From: Cyanobacteriota bacterium
GTDB lineage: Bacteria > Cyanobacteriota > Cyanobacteriia > Cyanobacteriales > Nostocaceae
Length of the DNA: 64,000 nt
NCBI GenBank assembly: GCA_046045965.1
Contig: JBJOKS010000016.1
Coordinates: forward strand, 60,003 to 124,002
Reading direction: 5' to 3'
The notes under the pieces: model-generated
The model's input: only the letters and a program-made list of their open reading frames with translations
What the model was told of the DNA's origin: nothing
Database searches by the model: none
Translations under genes and position numbers: made by a program
Shown here: one piece after another, positions 50,487-59,892 of the stretch
How positions within the stretch are numbered: the stretch's first letter is position 1
Layout: every line of letters begins with the position of its first letter

Positions 50487-50570
50487 TGAGTAATTGGTAA
50501 TGGGTAATTGGTAATGGGTAATTGTTATTACCAGTTTCCAGTTACCATGCCTTCCAGTCCTAAAAATTCT

Positions 50571-51341
50571 ATGACCAAGTTCACTACAGAAAAACCTTCT
50601 ACTCCCCAGTTATTTAAGGGAATTGCTCTTTTTACACCTGGAGGAGATTTAATTTACTGTATTGACCCTACTAAGCAGGGTCGATGGCATTTGCATTTGT
50701 GTGGGGCTTTACAGGAAATCTTAGATTTACCAGAATCCCCACATTTTTTAGTGCCTTGTTATACCGCAACCATTGATCATTGGTTGAATCCACGCACACA
50801 GCAAGTACAAACCTTTGCGGAAGCTTATCCGGCAGTTATCCGTCATCAGTCTGTACTCAAAGCAATTTTTGGCACGGGGGAGCTAGTCTGGCAAACAGCA
50901 CCTTGGCAGGAAGGATTATGCGATCGCATGGTGTTGGCTACTTATCGTTCTTCCTTTCCCCAACTCTGGGAAGATCATGATTTAATTGTGCGCTTGGACC
51001 GAGCAGATATGACATCACGATACCAGCAAAATCAACTGCATCTGCAACAGGAAAAAATTAATGCTCAAGGGTATGTCTTGCGTCTGTTTGTTGCTGGTCA
51101 TAGCATAAATACAGAACGCATTTTAGGAAATTTACACCAATTATTAGAGCGATCGCTCGGTTATCCTTACACCCTCAAGGTAATTGATGTTTTAACTCAT
51201 CCAGAACAAGCAGAAATTGATCAGGTTTCGGCAACTCCCACTTTAGTTAAGGTTTGGCCTCACCCAATTCGCCGCATAGTGGGGGATTTTGATAATGTTG
51301 ATAAACTATTACAAATGTTAGGAGCAAAAGATAATTCATAA
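50571..51341 (+). CDS. Protein with C-terminal KaiB-like domain
   Basis: YVLRLFVAG...LKVIDVL..PEQAE...ATPTLVK..P.P.RRIVGD. Confidence 0.8.
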   Translation: MTKFTTEKPSTPQLFKGIALFTPGGDLIYCIDPTKQGRWHLHLCGALQEILDLPESPHFLVPCYTATIDHWLNPRTQQVQTFAEAYPAVIRHQSVLKAIFGTGELVWQTAPWQEGLCDRMVLATYRSSFPQLWEDHDLIVRLDRADMTSRYQQNQLHLQQEKINAQGYVLRLFVAGHSINTERILGNLHQLLERSLGYPYTLKVIDVLTHPEQAEIDQVSATPTLVKVWPHPIRRIVGDFDNVDKLLQMLGAKDNS

Positions 51342-52235: not shown

Positions 52236-52841
52236 TCAAAAATTTGTCGCAGTACCGGTAACTGGATCGAATTCAAATCGCTGTTCGTAGTTTGTTTCGC
52301 CATACAAATTGAAGCTAATAGTTGGTTCATTCCCGCGTGCTTCAACATGATGAATGGCATCTGGCATCAAGCTAATAATTTCTCCGGGAGTTAAAATAAT
52401 CTCCCCGACTTTTTCAATCCCACCATTATTATCAGTCCGTCTCCACAGTGTATTTTTTTCTTCTCCACTAATCAGTGCTACAACTCCCCATGTAGCATGA
52501 TTATGAATTGGTGATACTCTTCCTGGCAACCACGCCACTGTCTGCACTGTCAAGGGGAAATCTGGCTCATCATATAAGGTGAGTACAGACCAACCTGTTT
52601 CTGGATCTGGTTCGATATATTCACCTTGTAACCACGCAGAACTGGTCAATAATTGACGCACAAGCGGACAAATAGCTTGCAGTCGGAGGCGATCGCTCTG
52701 AAATTTATGGAGAATATCTTCAAGATCCGTTAAAAATCTATATAGTCGATATTGATTTGTCCGTAATTCTAGATTATTTGCTGATTCTTCCCAGGCTTCA
52801 CATTTACCGTCGTCTGTCACTAACCAATCTTGGTTGATCAT
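52236..52841 (-). CDS. Cupin, cysteine-dioxygenase-like
   Basis: SPIHNHATWG...G.E...IHHV...SFNLYG. Confidence 0.8.
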   Translation of the reverse strand: MINQDWLVTDDGKCEAWEESANNLELRTNQYRLYRFLTDLEDILHKFQSDRLRLQAICPLVRQLLTSSAWLQGEYIEPDPETGWSVLTLYDEPDFPLTVQTVAWLPGRVSPIHNHATWGVVALISGEEKNTLWRRTDNNGGIEKVGEIILTPGEIISLMPDAIHHVEARGNEPTISFNLYGETNYEQRFEFDPVTGTATNF

Positions 52842-53065
52842 AATCTTTGCAGAACTCAATCACTTTATAAAAAAATCGAGCGAGCTAAAACCATCGAGAT
52901 AAAGTATCGGAGCTTGGCGGAGATATTTTATCGTGCTTTAGAGGATGGATGTAAGCGAGCGGCTTGTCCCTTTAGGGGCAGTCATAATCCTGACTGATCT
53001 GTTTAGGGGCTGCCAGTTTCCCTAAATAGTGCTATTTTTGTAGCACGTCGAAATGGTAATTAACA

Positions 53066-53632
53066 ATGATTGTTTTCGAGTTTAAAGCCAAAGGCACGAA
53101 ACAGCAATATCAAAGAATTGATGAGGCTATACGGATAACTAGGTTCATTCGTAACAAGTGCCTACGGTTTTGGATGGACAATCAAAATGTTAAACCCTAC
53201 GACCTTAATAAGTATACTGCTGTATTAGCGTCGGAATTTGATTTTGCTGATAAATTAAATTCAATGGCTAGACAAGCAGCAGCAGAAAGAACAGCTTTTG
53301 CAATTAAAAGATTCTTTGATAATTGTGAGCCAGTCCGGTCTTGTTGTGACAACAAAGAGGAACTGGCGAACCCGAAGGGTAAGGCTAAAGTTCCGGGTAA
53401 AAAGGGATATCCTAAATTTCAGAAAAATAACCGTTCGGTTGAATATAAGTCAACTGGATGGAAACTTTCAGATGACCGTAAACACATTAAATTTATAGAT
53501 AAATGTGGTATAGGTCAACTAAAGTTAATTGGAACTTGGGATTTACACTTTTACCAAATCAAGCAAATAAAAAGAATCAGAATAGTTAAACGTTCTGAAT
53601 TTAAGTACCGTCGGGCGGACGGAAACTTTTAA
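53066..53632 (+). pseudogene. tnpB: Internally deleted TnpB (RuvC and zinc finger lost)
   Basis: N-terminal FIRNKCLRFW...KKGYPKF...SVEYKSTGWKL; at about 53600 it joins the extreme C-terminal tail, read in another frame (LSTVGRTETFNACGE...SLKQESP). Confidence 0.85.
53327..53380. repeat. 54-bp small dispersed repeat inserted in frame in tnpB
   Basis: GAGCCAGT...CTGGCGAACCCGAAGGGT adds EPVRSCCDNKEELANPKG between DNC and KAK. Confidence 0.75.
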
Positions 53633-53668
53633 CGCTTGTGGAGAGATGACCCTCTACCCAGATTTGGT

Positions 53669-53723
53669 GAACCAGCACTGAAGAAGGGTTTCCCTCCGTA
53701 GGTGACTGGTGAACCCGAAGGGT
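53669..53723. repeat. 55-bp small dispersed repeat of the same family, in the right-end region
   Basis: GAACCAGC...CTGGTGAACCCGAAGGGT. Confidence 0.75.
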
Positions 53724-53791
53724 AACAAGTTTGGGCAAGGTTGCTCACTGAAACAAGAATCCCCGTCCTTTTAAGGCGGGGACCGTCAATA

Positions 53792-53817
53792 AATCCAATT
53801 TTAATAGTTGAGTCGTC
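53792..53817 (+). promoter_or_regulatory. Candidate ECF promoter P1
   Basis: AATCC-N14-AGTCGTC; identical spacing at three sites. Confidence 0.7.
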
Positions 53818-53928
53818 TTATAAACAGATGCGCCACAATTGACCACTTTAGTTTGTCTATCAGGTCACTATTGTGTTAGCATACTGCAATTAAACAATTT
53901 CAGTTTAAAAACAAACAGGAAAAACTTT

Positions 53929-54573
53929 ATGCACAAACACGCCAACTTCTTGCTCAAAATTTGTTTGAGCAGCCTGGTTTTGACAGTATCCATGGTAGCA
54001 ACAACCTCAGCTAGTATTTCTGCAACTGAAGCTCAATCATCAATTACGAAGATTGCTCAGTCAAATCCCTGTGCTGGTAAAAATCCCTGTGCTGGTAAAA
54101 ATCCCTGTGCTGGTAAAAATCCCTGTGCTGGTAAAAATCCCTGTGCTGGTAAAAATCCCTGTGCTGGCAAAAATCCCTGTGCTGGTAAAAAAAATCCCTG
54201 TGCTTCCAAGGTTAAATCTGTTGGCGGTCCTCTAGCTAAAGAACTTCAAGGTAAACCAGTTCTGGTGGATGTGTTTGCTAGCTGGTGTCCTGGCTGTAAG
54301 AATAATGCTCCTACTCTGTCACAATTGAAAAAAGAATACTCTGGCAAAGTCAACTTTGTCGTCCTGGATGTAACTGATAAAGCCAAACTGAAAAAGACAG
54401 AAGAGATGGCAAAAAAATTGGGTTTGGGGAAATTCCTCGAAGCTAATAAGAGTAAAACAAGCACTGTAGCCATCATTGACCCAGCTACTGGTAATATTTT
54501 AGGCATTTACCAAAACAATGCCAATAAGGCTGACTACACCAAAATACTCGAAGCCGCTTTGAAGAAAAAGTAG
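53929..54573 (+). CDS. Exported thioredoxin-fold protein with (NPCAGK)7-K-NPCASK cysteine array
   Basis: Sec-type signal from MHKH; 18-bp repeats at 54064-54210; WCPGC active site. Confidence 0.88.
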   Translation: MHKHANFLLKICLSSLVLTVSMVATTSASISATEAQSSITKIAQSNPCAGKNPCAGKNPCAGKNPCAGKNPCAGKNPCAGKNPCAGKKNPCASKVKSVGGPLAKELQGKPVLVDVFASWCPGCKNNAPTLSQLKKEYSGKVNFVVLDVTDKAKLKKTEEMAKKLGLGKFLEANKSKTSTVAIIDPATGNILGIYQNNANKADYTKILEAALKKK

Positions 54574-54581
54574 TTGATTTA

Positions 54582-54613
54582 TAGCTTTGCTCTGATTTTG
54601 AGGAGCAAAGCTA
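54582..54613 (+). terminator. Stem-loop after the first paralogue
   Basis: TAGCTTTGCTC-N10-GAGCAAAGCTA followed by GTTTCTT. Confidence 0.6.
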
Positions 54614-54670
54614 GTTTCTTATGTTTGAAAACGCTGGCTCAGTGCTGAGGAGTCATTTTGAATTTCAGTA

Positions 54671-54696
54671 AATCCAATTTTGATAGCTCAGTCGTC
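54671..54696 (+). promoter_or_regulatory. Candidate ECF promoter P2
   Basis: AATCC-N14-AGTCGTC. Confidence 0.7.
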
Positions 54697-54723
54697 TGAA
54701 TCAACAGATGCACCACAATTTAC

Positions 54724-54813
54724 CTGTTGGGCGAGATAGTGTAAGACAAGCTATGTCTGCAACTATTATTTAAACCCAGAATCTCTACCCTTCCAAGGCG
54801 GGGAGTATGTCAA
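54724..54813 (+). mobile_element. About 90-bp IS200/IS605-derived remnant (PATE-like)
   Basis: Ends AGAATCTCTACCCTTCCAAGGCGGGGAGTATGTCAA, resembling the right end at 53755-53789; begins after TTTAC, where similarity to the paralogous leader stops. Confidence 0.5.
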
Positions 54814-54909
54814 AGTTCTAATTTCGCATCTCTAAAAAACCAGCGAAAAATGCCCGCCAAGAAGCATTGTGGCAGCAATAAATCATTAAAGTGTGAGGAG
54901 AAGAACCAA

Positions 54910-55530
54910 ATGTACAAACATAACAAATTTTTGCTCAGTCTACTATGTTTGAGCAGCCTTGTTTTGACAGTATCATGCAGCAGCCCAACCAAATCAGATA
55001 ATATTTCTCAAAATCAAGCTCCATCAACTACGGATGTTGCTCAGACCAACCCCTGTGCTGCTAAAAATCCCTGTGCTGCTAAAAATCCCTGTGCTGCTAA
55101 AAATCCCTGTGCTGCTAAAAATCCCTGTGCTGCTAAAAATCCCTGTGCTGCTAAAAATGCTCCTAAATTAACTTCTGTTGGAGGTTCTCTAGCCCAAGAA
55201 CTTCAAGGTAAACCGGTCGTAGTGGATGTTTATGCTACCTGGTGTCCTGGCTGCAAGAATATAGATCCTACCCTATCGCAATTGAAACAGGAATATTCTG
55301 GCAAAGTCAACTTTGTGGTCTTGGATGTAACAGACCAAGCCAAACTGCAAGAGACACAAGCGCAAGCAGAAAAATTAGGTCTAGGGAAATTTCTGGAAGC
55401 TAACAAAAGTCAAACAAGCACTGTAGCGATCATTGACCCTGCTACTGGCGAAATTTTAACAATCTTCAAAAATAATCCTAATAAGGCTGACTACACTAAA
55501 ATACTCGATACTGCTCTAGCGAAAAGTTAG
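54910..55530 (+). CDS. Thioredoxin-fold lipoprotein with (NPCAAK)6 cysteine array
   Basis: LTVSC lipobox-like site; 18-bp repeats at 55048-55155; WCPGC; GAGGAG RBS. Confidence 0.88.
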   Translation: MYKHNKFLLSLLCLSSLVLTVSCSSPTKSDNISQNQAPSTTDVAQTNPCAAKNPCAAKNPCAAKNPCAAKNPCAAKNPCAAKNAPKLTSVGGSLAQELQGKPVVVDVYATWCPGCKNIDPTLSQLKQEYSGKVNFVVLDVTDQAKLQETQAQAEKLGLGKFLEANKSQTSTVAIIDPATGEILTIFKNNPNKADYTKILDTALAKS

Positions 55531-55758
55531 TGATAGATAGCTCTACACCAATTCGTCATTCGTGATTCAGATAGGTCAAAATCGAGCTACGTTTCTGAGT
55601 TTGAATATGTTGCTTGATTTTGGCCAATTGGTGTTACCTATACCTATCCTATACCTATATTTATTTCTTCTGCTTTGTCATTGCAAAGTGAAATGGAACA
55701 GCTAGTTTGTGTTGGCAATTATATGACTCCATCTTTATTATAGCTTGAGGATACCTCC

Positions 55759-56610
55759 TTGAAACAAATACCTCAGTCATCAACCGAGCAAACTCCTTCC
55801 CCACGTTCTAAAATATCGAAAAAATGGCTAGTTTACGGGGGATTGGGATTGCTTTCCCTGATTCTAGTTCTCACCCTCGGACCTGTAATCAGTCACCCTA
55901 TTGAACGGGTTATTTCGATTGTCGAAAATCGTTATCAGCAGTGGTTTAGCCAGCAAGACACAGCAAATCCCTTAGTGTTGTTGCCTTTGGCGTTTATTGG
56001 GGGTGTACTTGCTAGTGTATCACCCTGTATCTTGGCACTTTTACCAGTCAACCTCAGTTACATCGGCACACTCAAAATTAAATCCCGTTGGGATGCTTTT
56101 AGCAAGGCTGGCTTGTTTGTCCTGGGAGCAGTGACAATTTTAAGCCTGTTCGGTTTAGCCTCATCCTTCGCCGGCGCTGTAATGGTGGAGTACCGAGGCT
56201 ATATCAATATTATCGTGGGATTAATTATGGCTGTGATGGGTCTGTGGTTGATGGGGGTGGTAAATATTCCCCTACCGCAGATGAATGTGAATCTCCCCCA
56301 AGCTGGTCCTTATGGGGTGGGTTTGACTTTTGCCCTGGTCAGTTCCCCTTGTGCTAGTCCGGTGCTATTTGCGGTTTTGGCTGCGGCCGCAGCATCAGGT
56401 TCTCAGTTGTTGGGGACGCTGACAATGGTTAGCTATGCACTTGGTTACACCCTCCTAATTTTCCTGGCCAGTTTATTTACGGGACTGGCGAAACAAAGTA
56501 ACCAGTTATTAAAACATTCCGAGGGAATTATCCGCTTTGGTAGTCTGGCACTAATTCTGACTGGGACATACTACCTGTTTACTGGCACTCAATGGTTTTT
56601 GGGAGGTTAG
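55759..56610 (+). CDS. ccdA: CcdA/DsbD-type transmembrane electron transporter
   Basis: Multi-TM; both redox Pro-Cys motifs present ([18 protein letters not shown]). Confidence 0.88.
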
Positions 56611-56612
56611 GC

Positions 56613-57575
56613 ATGGTCGAGAATCTGGTAATTATTGGTTCTGGTCCGGCTGGTTATACTGCCGCCATCTATGCGGGACGCGCTCAACTGAAGCCTGTGG
56701 TATTTGAAGGTTTTAGTGCTGGGGGAATACCTGGAGGTCAATTAATGACTACTACGGAGGTAGAAAACTTTCCTGGTTTTTCCGAAGGTGTTCAGGGACC
56801 CAAGTTAATGCAGGAAATGCGCCAACAAGCATTACGTTGGGGTGCTAGTTTGATTACTGATGATGTAATTGCTGTAGATTTTACTCAATACCCATTTGTG
56901 ATGACATCTGCTGATGAGGTAGAAGTTAAGGCTCGTGCTGTGATCATTTGTACGGGGGCAATTGCCAAAAGATTGCATTTGCCGGGTGAGGAGAAGTTCT
57001 GGAATAACGGTATCTCTGCCTGTGCGATCTGTGATGGGGCAAATCCTTTGTTTGCAAATGCAGATATTGCTGTGGTTGGTGGCGGGGATTCGGCTGTGGA
57101 AGAAGCTCTGTATCTGACTAAGTATGCCCATAAAGTTCATTTATTGGTGCGGAGCGATCGCCTGCGGGCTTCCAAGACGATGCAGGAACGTGCATTGAAT
57201 CACAGCCAAATTCATATCCACTGGCATTGCTCACCCATCAGCGCACATGGTGATGAGGTACTACGTTGCGTCCAAGTTCAGGATAATCTCACTGGTGCAG
57301 TTTCTGACCTAGCTGTGAGTGGTTTGTTCTATGCCATTGGACACACCCCCAACACCCAACTGTTTCAGGGTCAACTGGAATTGGATGAGGTTGGCTATAT
57401 CAAGACTCAGGGTAAGAGTACAACTACGAATATTCCTGGCATTTGGGCGGCTGGAGACGTTCAGGATCACGTTTATCGTCAGGCAATTACCGCAGCTGGT
57501 ACCGGTTGTATGGCAGCATTGGAAGCTGAAAGGTGGTTATCAGAACAACAATCACTTGTTACTGTCGCTGCTTAA
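56613..57575 (+). CDS. trxB: NADPH-thioredoxin reductase
   Basis: [35 protein letters not shown]. Confidence 0.95.
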
Positions 57576-57610
57576 ATAGGGTTTTTGATCACAATCATTA
57601 GGAGATAAAT

Positions 57611-57952
57611 ATGCCAGAAACTTTTTCTATGGATCAAACTTTTTTTACAGGACGAGAAGCTTTTGAATGGTTGATGCAGGAATCTGATCAGCTAATCATT
57701 GTTAAGTTTGTAGGTCCTTACTGTCCTTCCTGCGAAACTCTTAAACCTGTACTGCATCAAATCGCTGTTGAAAACACAGGTAAATTGCATTTAGTTGAAC
57801 TCGATATGAGCGAAGATCCGGAATTAGCTATTAAGTTTGGTGTGAGAAGCGTACCGACGGTAGTATTACTTAAAAATAAGCAAACATTAGCACAAGTCTC
57901 AGGGTTGAAACCTAAAAAACAGTACGCAGAAATGATTCAATCTGCGATCTAG
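57611..57952 (+). CDS. Cytoplasmic thioredoxin (CPSC), NTRC-Trx-domain-like
   Basis: YCPSCETLKP, SVPT cis-Pro loop; AGGAG RBS. Confidence 0.85.
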   Translation: MPETFSMDQTFFTGREAFEWLMQESDQLIIVKFVGPYCPSCETLKPVLHQIAVENTGKLHLVELDMSEDPELAIKFGVRSVPTVVLLKNKQTLAQVSGLKPKKQYAEMIQSAI

Positions 57953-57964
57953 ATACAGGGAAGT

Positions 57965-58089
57965 AGATTAAAAGAATGAAGAATTTAGAATTTAGAATGT
58001 AGAATTACGTTTTGCAACGGGGATTTTACCCCGACGCAAAACCCGCTGCTTGTAGAAGCAGGGGACTTTCCCCCCAAAGGTAAGTTAAA
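57965..58089. repeat. Dispersed repeat, long copy
   Basis: Matches 28124-28207 plus about 40 bp of extra internal sequence. Confidence 0.85.
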
Positions 58090-58226
58090 TCCTGTTATCA
58101 GTTGAAAAAGTCACAACATTACGAATATTCATCAGCAACAGTCTATTACTTTGTAGAACCCATGCTAAAAATCCCGCTGCTCCCCTACCCTAAAAGCGAT
58201 GGGATATTTTTTTTATTTGCAGTCTT

Positions 58227-59027
58227 TTAAATGTCCGAGCTTTGCATCACGACAGTTCCGCTGGGACTAGAGACGTTTCCATCTAACTCCAGTGTCACAA
58301 CTAACCCGGAAAATTCTGGGTGATAAAATTCCCTGTACATTTGATCAGTGAACGGTAACTCATAGGCCGCATTTCCCCAAGTATAGGGCTTGACTTCACC
58401 GCAGGGTAACTTCTCTCTAGCAACAACTGTCCATAGGAAGTAAATATATCCAGGAGGTGGAGCAGGAAGATTTTGGAAAACCATTACTGCTTTTTGTTGT
58501 TCAGGATTTATGACTATACTTCCTGAACTTTTTTCTTTGGAGTTTACGCCTTTAAAAGTAATCAGTCGCGTTTCGTTATTTTGGAGCATGGTTTTAACTA
58601 GTTTAGCTTGGGCAAAATCTTGGCGTAAACGCTGGTTATCAGCTATGGAATTACCCAGATTTTGTCGCAGCCGATAGTTATCGACTCCTAGAACTATTAC
58701 AATTAATGCAGCAATACCACCAGCAATTCTTCTCCACTGAAGTAGCGGTGTAGCCACTTTGGAGTATCCCTTGATGACAGTAGTTGGTTTGGACAAATCT
58801 TCAACTTGTTCTAGAATTTTTGGTAGCAAATAGGCTGGTGCTTTTACTTCTGTGAAGCCATCTATCACTTGTCTGAGAACTTCTTGTAAATCCTCAACTT
58901 CGGTAATTAGTTCTGGATGTCCATCAAGTAACAGCCGAAACTCTTCTTCTTCTTTGGGGGTAAGATCATCAACTACAAACCCCGCAGCTAGGTTTTGGAT
59001 ATGTTCGGGATCGCAATATTTATTCAT
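58227..59027 (-). CDS. RskA-type transmembrane anti-sigma factor
   Basis: N-terminal LAAGFVVDDL...E.EEF anti-sigma helices, one TM, C-terminal NLPAPPPG..Y.LW...VTLE..G..SP.G; overlaps the sigma gene. Confidence 0.85.
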   Translation of the reverse strand: MNKYCDPEHIQNLAAGFVVDDLTPKEEEEFRLLLDGHPELITEVEDLQEVLRQVIDGFTEVKAPAYLLPKILEQVEDLSKPTTVIKGYSKVATPLLQWRRIAGGIAALIVIVLGVDNYRLRQNLGNSIADNQRLRQDFAQAKLVKTMLQNNETRLITFKGVNSKEKSSGSIVINPEQQKAVMVFQNLPAPPPGYIYFLWTVVAREKLPCGEVKPYTWGNAAYELPFTDQMYREFYHPEFSGLVVTLELDGNVSSPSGTVVMQSSDI

Positions 59028-59622
59028 ATATTGATAAATCAGAATCTAGTAAGATGCGTTTTAGTTTTATTAATGCTTGTCTGGTGCAAGTTTTCACTGT
59101 ACCGAGAGGTATATTGATTTGTTTTGCAATTTCTGACTGACTTAGTCCTTGGTTATAAGCCAGTTCAATGACCAGGCGTTGCTTTTCTGGAAGTTGTAAA
59201 AGAGCGTTGTAAATGCGCCCTGATCGCTCTGCAAAACTCGCTTGTTCAAAGGGTGTTGGTTCTGGTGTTTCATCTGTCATTGTTTGTCCCCATTTTTCTA
59301 CAAGTTTGATTTGTCTATTGCGAGAGCGTAGTTTATCTATTGCCCGCGATCGCGTTATAGTTACCAGATAGCGCACGAAAAAGCGACAATCTGGATTACT
59401 AGATGCTTTTCGCCACAGTGTCAAAAAAATTTCTTGAGTCAAATCTTCAGCTTCTTGGGAGTTAGCCAATATTTTGAATGCTAATCCATAAACCAGACGA
59501 CCATGACGATTGAATAAAACGCTTAATGCTGAAGAATCACCATTTTTAAGCGCCATAAATAAAGCTTCATCTGTAGCAGATGAAAGTTCTCTGGAATTTG
59601 AAGGGGGAAGTTTAGGTTCCAT
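59020..59622 (-). CDS. ECF sigma-70 factor (SigK-like)
   Basis: AEDLTQEIF, RSRAIDKLR, LPEKQR..IELAY..GLSQSEIA...PLGTVK. Confidence 0.92.
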   Translation of the reverse strand: MEPKLPPSNSRELSSATDEALFMALKNGDSSALSVLFNRHGRLVYGLAFKILANSQEAEDLTQEIFLTLWRKASSNPDCRFFVRYLVTITRSRAIDKLRSRNRQIKLVEKWGQTMTDETPEPTPFEQASFAERSGRIYNALLQLPEKQRLVIELAYNQGLSQSEIAKQINIPLGTVKTCTRQALIKLKRILLDSDLSIYE

Positions 59623-59744
59623 GTTGTCTCAAAACCAGGTCTGAGCAGATATTAGAGCAAGTTAGTGATAAGCTTTGTTTCATCACTTCTCTCCATGACT
59701 ACAACTCATAAATCTTTATTTAGGAAAATGTCATTTATTCTTAT

Positions 59745-59770
59745 GACGACTGGTGTGGTGTGATCGGATT
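59745..59770 (-). promoter_or_regulatory. Candidate autoregulatory ECF promoter P3
   Basis: Minus strand AATCC-GATCACACCACACC-AGTCGTC, about 120 bp upstream of the sigma start. Confidence 0.7.
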
Positions 59771-59892
59771 GGATTTTTGATGCGGATATTTGATTAAATT
59801 AAAAAATTTAGGATTAGTTATTTACTCACACCAGATTTTTTAATAAAATAGGTCAATCTCAAGAGCGCAGAAATATCATAAAAAGATTATAA

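Follow-up and report, generated by a model that had tools for sequence, protein, structure and literature searches.

Several described systems resemble parts of the locus considered here, a gene cluster in a 64,000-nucleotide stretch of cyanobacterial DNA (the window throughout this text), which encodes two exported-type thioredoxin-fold proteins, eTrx1 and eTrx2, each carrying a tandem array of a cysteine-containing hexapeptide. The source genome (5.29 Mb, 92% complete) encodes proteins that match those of Nostocales cyanobacteria. One counterpart is the NTR1/TrxE pair of Anabaena sp. PCC 7120, compared here by its published description: an NADPH-thioredoxin reductase (NTR) gene is followed by a YCPSC thioredoxin gene, with two WCXXC thioredoxin-like genes upstream (PMC7242069, PMC9025218). 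According to these reports, the reductase (alr2204) reduces Alr2205 in vitro and FTR does not, neither NTR nor Alr2205 was detected under standard growth (PMC7242069), and the pair was named NTR1/TrxE, with its redox neighbours listed and the cluster patchy among close relatives (PMC9025218, PMC7242069). Cadmium is described as raising both the alr2205 transcript and the protein (10.1101/2022.09.23.509143). The texts of the NTR1/TrxE papers do not mention CcdA, export, a pair of extracytoplasmic function (ECF) sigma and anti-sigma factors, a promoter, the cysteine array or a dioxygenase, and one of them suggests pseudogenes. The words ‘CcdA’, ‘periplasm’ and ‘sigma’ are absent from the text of PMC9025218, whose Figure 4 and supplements may show more.

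A literature search on alr2201-2203 and all2198-2199 returned nothing relevant. Searches of the open full-text literature, from which most subscription journals are missing, found no description of the array, of DUF6969 or of the cupin link discussed below. The preliminary description of the locus knew of no account of this architecture in cyanobacteria; the NTR/TrxE step and the upstream WCXXC genes, however, had been published.

The mycobacterial SigK-RskA regulon (mpb83-dipZ-mpb70), as presented in PMC10540498, shares with our locus an ECF sigma factor with an RskA-type anti-sigma factor, a regulon of very few genes, a membrane protein of CcdA type, and a lipoprotein and a secreted paralogue encoded side by side. 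The analogy drawn in the preliminary description holds; an RskA-type anti-sigma gene lies beside the ECF sigma gene, and a CcdA-type protein is encoded. However, the exported pair here consists of thioredoxin-fold proteins with cysteine arrays, CcdA and thioredoxin are encoded separately, there is an additional cytoplasmic reductase arm, and the MPB70/MPB83 genes and the fused DipZ are absent from the cluster. The Cys133/Cys183 pair reported for SigK (PMC7509140) is not conserved, RskA has an invariant cysteine, and the SigK model NF007228 scores our sigma factor at 110 bits against a cut-off of 226.

Bufferins and the Buf_EGKCG/oxazolin peptides, in the accounts of PMC11626156 and PMC12452194, carry their cysteine repeats behind a Sec signal, in some cases joined to other domains, and are accompanied by ECF control and DoxX neighbours. 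In comparison, our repeat is different, the linked enzyme is a cupin (in cyanobacteria) or DUF6969 (in other phyla), and modification of the array is putative. The modifying MNIO enzymes (PF05114) were not found in the host genome, which is 92% complete (the control was positive in Caulobacter), the BufA2 precursor model gives eTrx1 17.4 bits against a cut-off of 60, and the string ‘NPC’ does not occur in the accessible text of the MNIO survey. The cassette works like SigK-RskA-DipZ but lies outside that group by its features, contains the described NTR1/TrxE pair, and resembles bufferin systems without MNIO.

The main new result concerns a gene encoding a cupin related to thiol dioxygenases. 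The preliminary description set the limits of the cluster at 53792 and 59770, which coincide with a conserved promoter-like motif that it did not mention. The genes between these limits were confirmed, but the cluster extends further left, to the conserved cupin gene, which was overlooked there. Judged from gene content across genomes, this upstream cupin tracks the array and is its most constant gene partner. When 26 genomes with an eTrx-type thioredoxin, found in a 301-genome sample of the phylum, were compared, the cassette-clade cupin was present in 15/15 array-bearing genomes (14 with at least two units on the thioredoxin and one with a stand-alone array; one cupin copy is split) and in 1/11 array-less ones. 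The Fisher p of 2e-6 is overstated, since related genomes are not independent; the pattern also appears within families (5/5 against 1/4 in one and 2/2 against 0/7 in another). All five further array genomes have a match closer to the cassette copy of the cupin; of five further array-less genomes, four have no cupin match and one has the nitrogenase-linked (nif) copy only.

The association is also seen when the cupin is taken as the starting point. An array gene, usually divergent, lies within 1.5 kb of it in 16 of the 25 non-nif cupin loci (on a thioredoxin in 5, on a YHS-domain protein in 7 and stand-alone in 4), and within 8 kb in 20 of the 25, nine loci having been widened. These loci span more than 10 families and include congeners (five in one genus and two in another). 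Around the housekeeping clade of the cupin, the fetched flanks contain an array in 0/24 loci, three of which were classed by BLAST only. The cupin was found in 0/31 non-cyanobacterial array loci.

The cupin matches 3-mercaptopropionate and mercaptosuccinate dioxygenases (MDO) over its length (E 1e-14 to 1e-10), with phmmer hits in the PDB to 6xb9 (E 1e-14), mercaptosuccinate dioxygenase 8vni (E 2e-14) and the 3-mercaptopropionate dioxygenase 3uss (E 6e-13). The full-length match to 6XB9, 3USS and 8VNI includes the three-His iron site, whose residues H119, H121 and H170 are invariant in 14/14 sequences. In contrast, the Ser-His-Tyr outer-sphere motif is replaced by S-N-Y in all 43 aligned rows, W-S-V stands where MDO has Y-Q-Q, and the gene is found in the company of a cysteine array rather than of thiol catabolism. 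In the study that defines the Ser-His-Tyr motif, the MDO substitution H157N is given as lowering kcat about 20-fold (PMC10966181). Atlas neighbours of the cupin are CDO_I-type clusters, and its wider relatives are fused to rhodanese or to pyridoxal phosphate (PLP) enzymes.

The cyanobacterial cupins of this type form two clades (SH-aLRT 99), one often found amid nitrogenase-associated genes and the other in the cassette. The housekeeping paralogue is present in nearly all genomes of the host’s family; in the host (C1:201003-202991) and in four other loci it lies between a small TPR-like gene and a nitrogenase-associated gene of the ArsC family (TIGR01616). The cassette copy follows rskA in three related loci but not in the host genome, where the cupin gene, cut off from its usual place, may be poorly expressed.

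In the window, the array of eTrx1 comprises seven NPCAGK units and one NPCASK unit, with one extra Lys before the last. Apart from the arrays of eTrx1 and eTrx2, the 5.3-Mb genome has no NPC repeat. The preliminary description correctly reported two exported-type WCPGC thioredoxin paralogues with 8 and 6 units, including gene order and strands, but the arrays that it called tails are N-terminal. They lie between the signal peptide and the thioredoxin domain, forming an N-terminal arm in eTrx1 and a lipid-anchor tether in eTrx2, which has the lipobox LTVS-C; none was read in the sequence of eTrx1. From their signal-like N-termini, both proteins are predicted to be exported to the periplasm or the thylakoid lumen. 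Copy numbers are those of assembled contigs; one run (X1) has a contig joint that links the two arrays, which was rejected as a probable repeat collapse.

In the AlphaFold model of eTrx2, residues 23-71 have pLDDT <50, while the thioredoxin domain exceeds 90, the confident fold beginning after residue 85 (fold comparison: Z 11.5, root-mean-square deviation 3.0, 98 aligned residues). Both cysteines of WCxxC are kept in 202/202 aligned rows of the family. The cis-Pro before the fourth strand is absent: Ser, Gly or Ala follows an invariant Thr in 202/202 rows, in a register taken from the strand order of the AlphaFold model, as hhalign did not reach this region. Five canonical thioredoxin domains of the same genome do have the cis-Pro, a residue reported to exclude metals from the active site of thioredoxins. 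Directly after WCPGC, eTrx1 has KNNAP (54301-54306) where the family has Ile (201/202, one Val); this private change beside the active site may impair this copy. The thioredoxin domain of eTrx2 is 92% identical to that of BAB73901.1, presumably from Anabaena sp. PCC 7120, and that homologue carries 0 array units.

The array is optional for its thioredoxin carriers. Among 116 complete homologues ranked by the thioredoxin domain alone, 27 have no unit, 5 have one, 36 have two and 48 have 3-10. In a quick tree of 149 rows, all array carriers fall into one clade (SH-aLRT 96) and the 21 rows outside it have none; within this clade the presence/absence label switches often, and the closest relatives of both window proteins have 0 units. 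As 11 of the 26 genomes with an eTrx-type thioredoxin are array-less, the relay does not require the array. In the array-less thioredoxin branch (ten loci), genes for a cytochrome b561 and an RTX-repeat protein lie upstream, and ccdA is followed by sigma-rskA.

Conversely, the array does not depend on this thioredoxin. The hexapeptide Asn-Pro-Cys-Ala-x-Lys is conserved at the protein level, with mixed codons, and in cyanobacteria it also occurs on YHS-domain proteins and small lipoproteins, including those of genomes without a match to an eTrx-type thioredoxin. In three families the eTrx-type thioredoxin was found in 0/15, 0/4 and 0/3 genomes, and YHS-borne or stand-alone arrays are found in such genomes. 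Re-reduction of the array in cis, proposed earlier, is therefore not its general logic. The 31 non-cyanobacterial array loci carry it on cytochromes c of SoxA/TsdA type (22), on P460 domains (4) and on stand-alone exported peptides. Among matches to stand-alone array proteins, 113/117 have at least three units. Eight stand-alone array peptides have no NCBIfam match, and for one of them Atlas returned unnamed clusters only. One more carrier is a COP23-family domain fused to the array in L168:1036-1677 (-). Two candidate array genomes proved to be false matches, and a third was not confirmed.

Outside cyanobacteria, a gene of the DUF6969 family is present in 21/31 array loci; it was found in 0/301 cyanobacterial genomes (positive control 2/4). 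Its model (pLDDT 89) gave no Foldseek hit at E 0.001, and the best VIA match (Z 7.3) falls on helical hairpins. By secondary structure of the model DUF6969 is not a cupin, and the two partner proteins of the array look unrelated. Other genes beside arrays encode MerR/MerF/MerC, CusF, a CopZ-type chaperone, ArsS/ArsM, AhpD and DoxX-like proteins. A pair of MerF and CopZ-N-terminal-type genes was seen inside the cyanobacterial cassette L009:9633-10336, and the same pair lies directly upstream of a gammaproteobacterial stand-alone array peptide (L061:4074-4777). A single record, P0204 (117 aa, N-terminus possibly incomplete), joins a DUF2282 domain (bufferin BufA1) to NPCAAK units. Genes of DUF3179 occur beside arrays in three cyanobacterial loci and in six of other phyla, and in two of the cyanobacterial ones (including L009) the promoter motif recurs in weaker form upstream of this gene; a small membrane protein of the NrtS family (NF038050) recurs in six loci.

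Based on these observations, we tentatively suggest, while holding it somewhat short of an even chance, that the locus is an accessory envelope-stress cassette of two separable modules, in which the array would be a cysteine tag, processed by the cupin in the cytoplasm and exported to deal with soft-metal or thiol stress. Stress outside the cytoplasm would be sensed, possibly at the invariant cysteine of RskA, and the freed ECF sigma factor would act at three matching promoters (P1-P3). In the first module, NADPH would supply electrons that NTR1, TrxE and CcdA hand on to two exported thioredoxin-fold proteins, one soluble and one lipid-anchored; the first step is known in vitro for the Anabaena pair and the rest follows known CcdA chemistry. 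The second module would consist of the (N/D)PCAxK array, which would bind soft metals or absorb thiol-reactive stress, and of the dioxygenase-like cupin. The thioredoxin domain would be one of several carriers of this tag.

The simplest reading is that the array itself would be the target of the cupin, given that this enzyme disappears along with the cysteines and tracks them across carriers. Such action, suggested by co-inheritance, would precede Sec export, in the manner of MNIO enzymes on bufferins, and outside cyanobacteria DUF6969 would fill the same role. A sink for soft metals or thiol stress is proposed because mercury, copper, arsenic and peroxidase genes adjoin arrays elsewhere and because of the likeness to bufferin loci. 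A broader claim, which we regard as possible but rather doubtful, is that (N/D)PCAxK is a transplantable, enzyme-modified cysteine tag, forming a new class that resembles the ribosomally synthesised and post-translationally modified peptides (RiPP), with internal cysteines converted in the cytoplasm by one of two metalloenzymes without relationship to each other, the cupin (cyanobacteria) or DUF6969 (elsewhere), and exported alone or on thioredoxins, YHS proteins and cytochromes as a metal-binding arm.

Several observations weigh against this proposal. The S-N-Y change in the pocket is common to the nif-linked paralogue and hence not specific to array-linked cupins. One genome (G066) has the cupin but no array, as do two more in which the array was sought with one DNA pattern (G219, in the cassette clade by the tree, and G199, off the tree), and the cassette copy in G093 is the split one. 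The cupin is mostly on the strand of the regulators, either upstream of a sensor kinase (13/25 loci) or after sigK-rskA, which also fits a signalling role, and the linked sensor kinase scores under the heavy-metal-sensor cut-off (238 and 218 against 293 bits). The link to metals is drawn from neighbour genes. Among 70 of the 108 candidate ORFs near non-cyanobacterial arrays, MNIO, DUF2063 and DUF2282 were each found 0 times; the other 38 were excluded on visual inspection, being judged to be shadow frames, to belong to housekeeping genes or to run off the locus. An irreversible change of the cysteines would leave the fused thioredoxin pointless for the array. To our knowledge, known thiol dioxygenases act on small thiols or on N-terminal cysteine, not on internal cysteines.

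The strongest competitor, although we consider it unlikely, is that the array works with plain thiols: it would bind Cu, Ag, Hg or As, or be oxidised by HOCl or H2O2, and be re-reduced by its own thioredoxin domain through the relay, with the cupin merely clearing free cysteine or some other small thiol, or tuning the regulator signal. The flexible array adjoins a CxxC domain, TrxE is present in 14/18 array loci and 1/21 array-less ones, a CcdA-thioredoxin pair lies upstream of array cytochromes in two loci, and the cupin, whose relatives fuse to rhodanese or PLP enzymes, retains the three His of small-thiol dioxygenases. However, the YHS and stand-alone arrays of genomes lacking such a thioredoxin match do not fit, and a co-regulated catabolic enzyme is not expected to vanish whenever the array cysteines vanish.

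We have still less confidence in a role in sulfur handling, in which arrays would be swinging arms for sulfane sulfur (persulfides) from sulfide or thiosulfate, stripped by the relay, while the cupin would oxidise the released thiol or persulfide. This would agree with the SoxA/TsdA-type cytochrome c as the commonest carrier in other phyla, with YeeE/YedE transporters in 8/31 and rhodanese in one of the non-cyanobacterial loci, and with the sulfur-oxidising family of the cupin. On the other hand, the cyanobacterial loci showed no recognisable sulfur transporter or rhodanese (YeeE 0/40), and mercury, copper and arsenic genes are equally frequent neighbours.

We give a similarly low probability to an array that is structural (a tether, or for disulfide cross-linking) or a near-neutral product of repeat slippage, on an ordinary SigK/DipZ-like reducing system serving some envelope client. 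A copy number that ranges from 0 to 11 and changes many times on the tree, unit-free closest relatives of both window proteins and almost identical DNA units in the window would be expected of such a repeat, but the same hexapeptide with mixed codons across distant phyla would not, nor would an array that is the entire mature product of many small exported proteins, and the linked cupin or DUF6969 is left unexplained.

Lastly, a second branch of cytochrome c maturation (System II) is very improbable: the CcdA-ResA layout of CcdA with an exported thioredoxin and the array-bearing cytochromes c of other phyla recall it, but the other ccdA of the genome, 33% identical and on contig C11, is followed by a 458-codon membrane-protein gene that we take to be Ccs1/ResB, neither ccs1/resB, ccsA nor another haem-handling gene was recognised in the cluster or related loci, the thioredoxin occurs in only 26/301 genomes, and the ResA and DsbE models score far under their cut-offs. 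The presence of this second ccdA beside a putative ccs1-like gene indicates that the cluster is not the cytochrome c maturation system.

Every link from NADPH through NTR, thioredoxin and CcdA to the exported thioredoxin is encoded in the cluster, as originally reported. Both Pro-Cys motifs of CcdA are intact, with Cys90 and Cys198 each invariant in 35/35 aligned copies; the trxB/NTR1 product scores 384 bits with TIGR01292 (cut-off 343) and contains CAIC and GGGDSA. The gene after it encodes a thioredoxin with YCPSC, and the convergent ECF/RskA-like pair passed the cut-offs of the PRK12519 and RskA_C models. A separate NTRC is encoded on contig C20.

The relay was earlier called self-contained, but only a minority of related loci are in this state. 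Of 39 such cyanobacterial loci, covered for up to 8 kb on each side and several of them shortened by contig ends, 35 have ccdA, 27 a related sigma gene, 15 trxE and 10 the reductase gene, and all five links lie within 8 kb in only 4. One plasmid record carries the eTrx-type thioredoxin. The sole MsrA of the genome lacks a signal-like N-terminus, and no gene of the YHS selenoprotein family was found in the genome.

The ECF control postulated for the cluster agrees with a common promoter-like motif, AATCC(A/G)AT-N9/10-CAGTCGTC(A/T)TA, which lies 139 nt before eTrx1, 241 nt before eTrx2 and 150 nt before the sigma gene. When the genome was scored with a matrix derived from 25 sites of other genomes, P3 (33.0), P2 (31.8) and P1 (29.3) were the top three sites; the highest scores were 22.6 in the reversed control and 19.6 in the shuffled one. 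Another promoter-like site (C35:3549; 25.0 against the control peak of 22.6) is antisense within a coding region and was set aside. No outside client gene under the motif was found in the genome scan. The motif precedes 13/13 close orthologues of the sigma gene; the sigma factor may regulate its own gene through P3 and may read all three sites. In 25 genomes of the same family (including this one), a sigma factor with at least 81% identity, linked or not, is present in the 6 with the thioredoxin and in 0/19 others. Cys209 of RskA, in the C-terminal domain outside the membrane helix, is invariant (27/27), while the sigma factor has no invariant cysteine: Cys179 is present in 8/27 and Cys79 (region 2) in 13/27, and no other cysteine is conserved.

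Contigs from two metatranscriptomes of different studies span the cluster. Their depth is 337 and 225 at eTrx1 and does not exceed 1.6 in the bins to the right of the sigma gene, a stretch that DNA runs still cover. This coverage only fits transcription in nature, as contig depth cannot rank genes.

Features of the cluster are collected in Table 1. On the plus strand, eTrx1, eTrx2, ccdA, NTR and trxE are convergent with sigma-rskA on the minus strand.

Table 1. Coordinates of the cassette and of adjoining elements, numbered from the first position of the window
Feature	Position	Strand	Remarks
Thiol-dioxygenase-like cupin (TDO), cassette clade	52236..52841	-	Open reading frame (ORF) called from TTG 52859; likely start ATG 52841
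IS200/IS605 remnant with truncated tnpB (53066-53632)	52865..53789	+	NF040570 TnpB below cut-off
P1, ECF promoter-like motif	53790..53820	+	Matrix score 29.3
eTrx1, 214 aa: signal-like N-terminus without lipobox, 8-unit array, WCPGC thioredoxin domain	53929..54573	+	ATG start
Array 1, (NPCAGK)7-K-NPCASK, near-identical 18-bp units	54064..54210	+	
Terminator-like hairpin 3' of eTrx1, 12 pairs	54582..54613	+	Consensus match only
P2, second copy of the promoter-like motif, heads eTrx2-ccdA-NTR1-trxE	54669..54699	+	Score 31.8; repeat D4
eTrx2, 206 aa: predicted lipoprotein, 6-unit tether, WCPGC thioredoxin domain without cis-Pro	54910..55530	+	
Array 2, (NPCAAK)6	55048..55155	+	
CcdA (DsbD transmembrane domain), both Pro-Cys motifs	55759..56610	+	PF02683 above cut-off; 5VKV E 8e-13
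NADPH-thioredoxin reductase, NTR1 type	56613..57575	+	ORF called from 56592; likely start 56613; TIGR01292
Cytoplasmic TrxE-type thioredoxin, YCPSC	57611..57952	+	Name and motif as described in PMC9025218, PMC7242069
RskA-type anti-sigma factor, one transmembrane helix (95-113)	58227..59027	-	PF10099 62 against 29 bits
ECF sigma factor, PRK12519 family, SigK-like	59020..59622	-	275 bits against cut-off of 222
P3, third motif copy, before the sigma gene	59742..59772	-	Score 33.0, best site of the genome

The IS200/IS605 remnant, which fills the space from 24 nt ahead of the TDO start to P1, is outside the system; pieces of it that are 91-100% identical lie on contig C4, and shorter copies occur elsewhere in the genome. 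A small repeat with an IS605-like end lies between P2 and eTrx2 (54723-54823; four other copies at about 82%), and an element of about 120 bp between trxE and rskA (57968-58090) has near-identical copies in 16 BLAST rows and is probably a small mobile repeat. Terminator-like sites number 9 in the region against 5.8 expected. The Rfam scan gave no match, and sigma-70 sites are at chance level. To the left, a 277-aa protein (50508-51341, +) combines a C-terminal KaiB domain with an unassigned N-terminal part. The neighbouring metallo-hydrolase, TPR and tnpB genes were conserved in 0/40 related loci.

The proposal offers a testable role for an Anabaena cluster listed without function (NTR1/TrxE and its WCXXC neighbours), together with a candidate promoter and regulator, and it points to an enzyme that may serve a cysteine repeat of wide occurrence. 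The exported thioredoxin family without cis-Pro is a second oddity, given the reported metal-excluding role of that residue. As the cupin has solved relatives, it is far easier to assay than DUF6969. We know of no bacterial thiol-dioxygenase-type enzyme that works on a protein substrate; if our suggestion is true, the cupin would be the first. If they are modified, the arrays might constitute a new class of modified metal-binding peptides.

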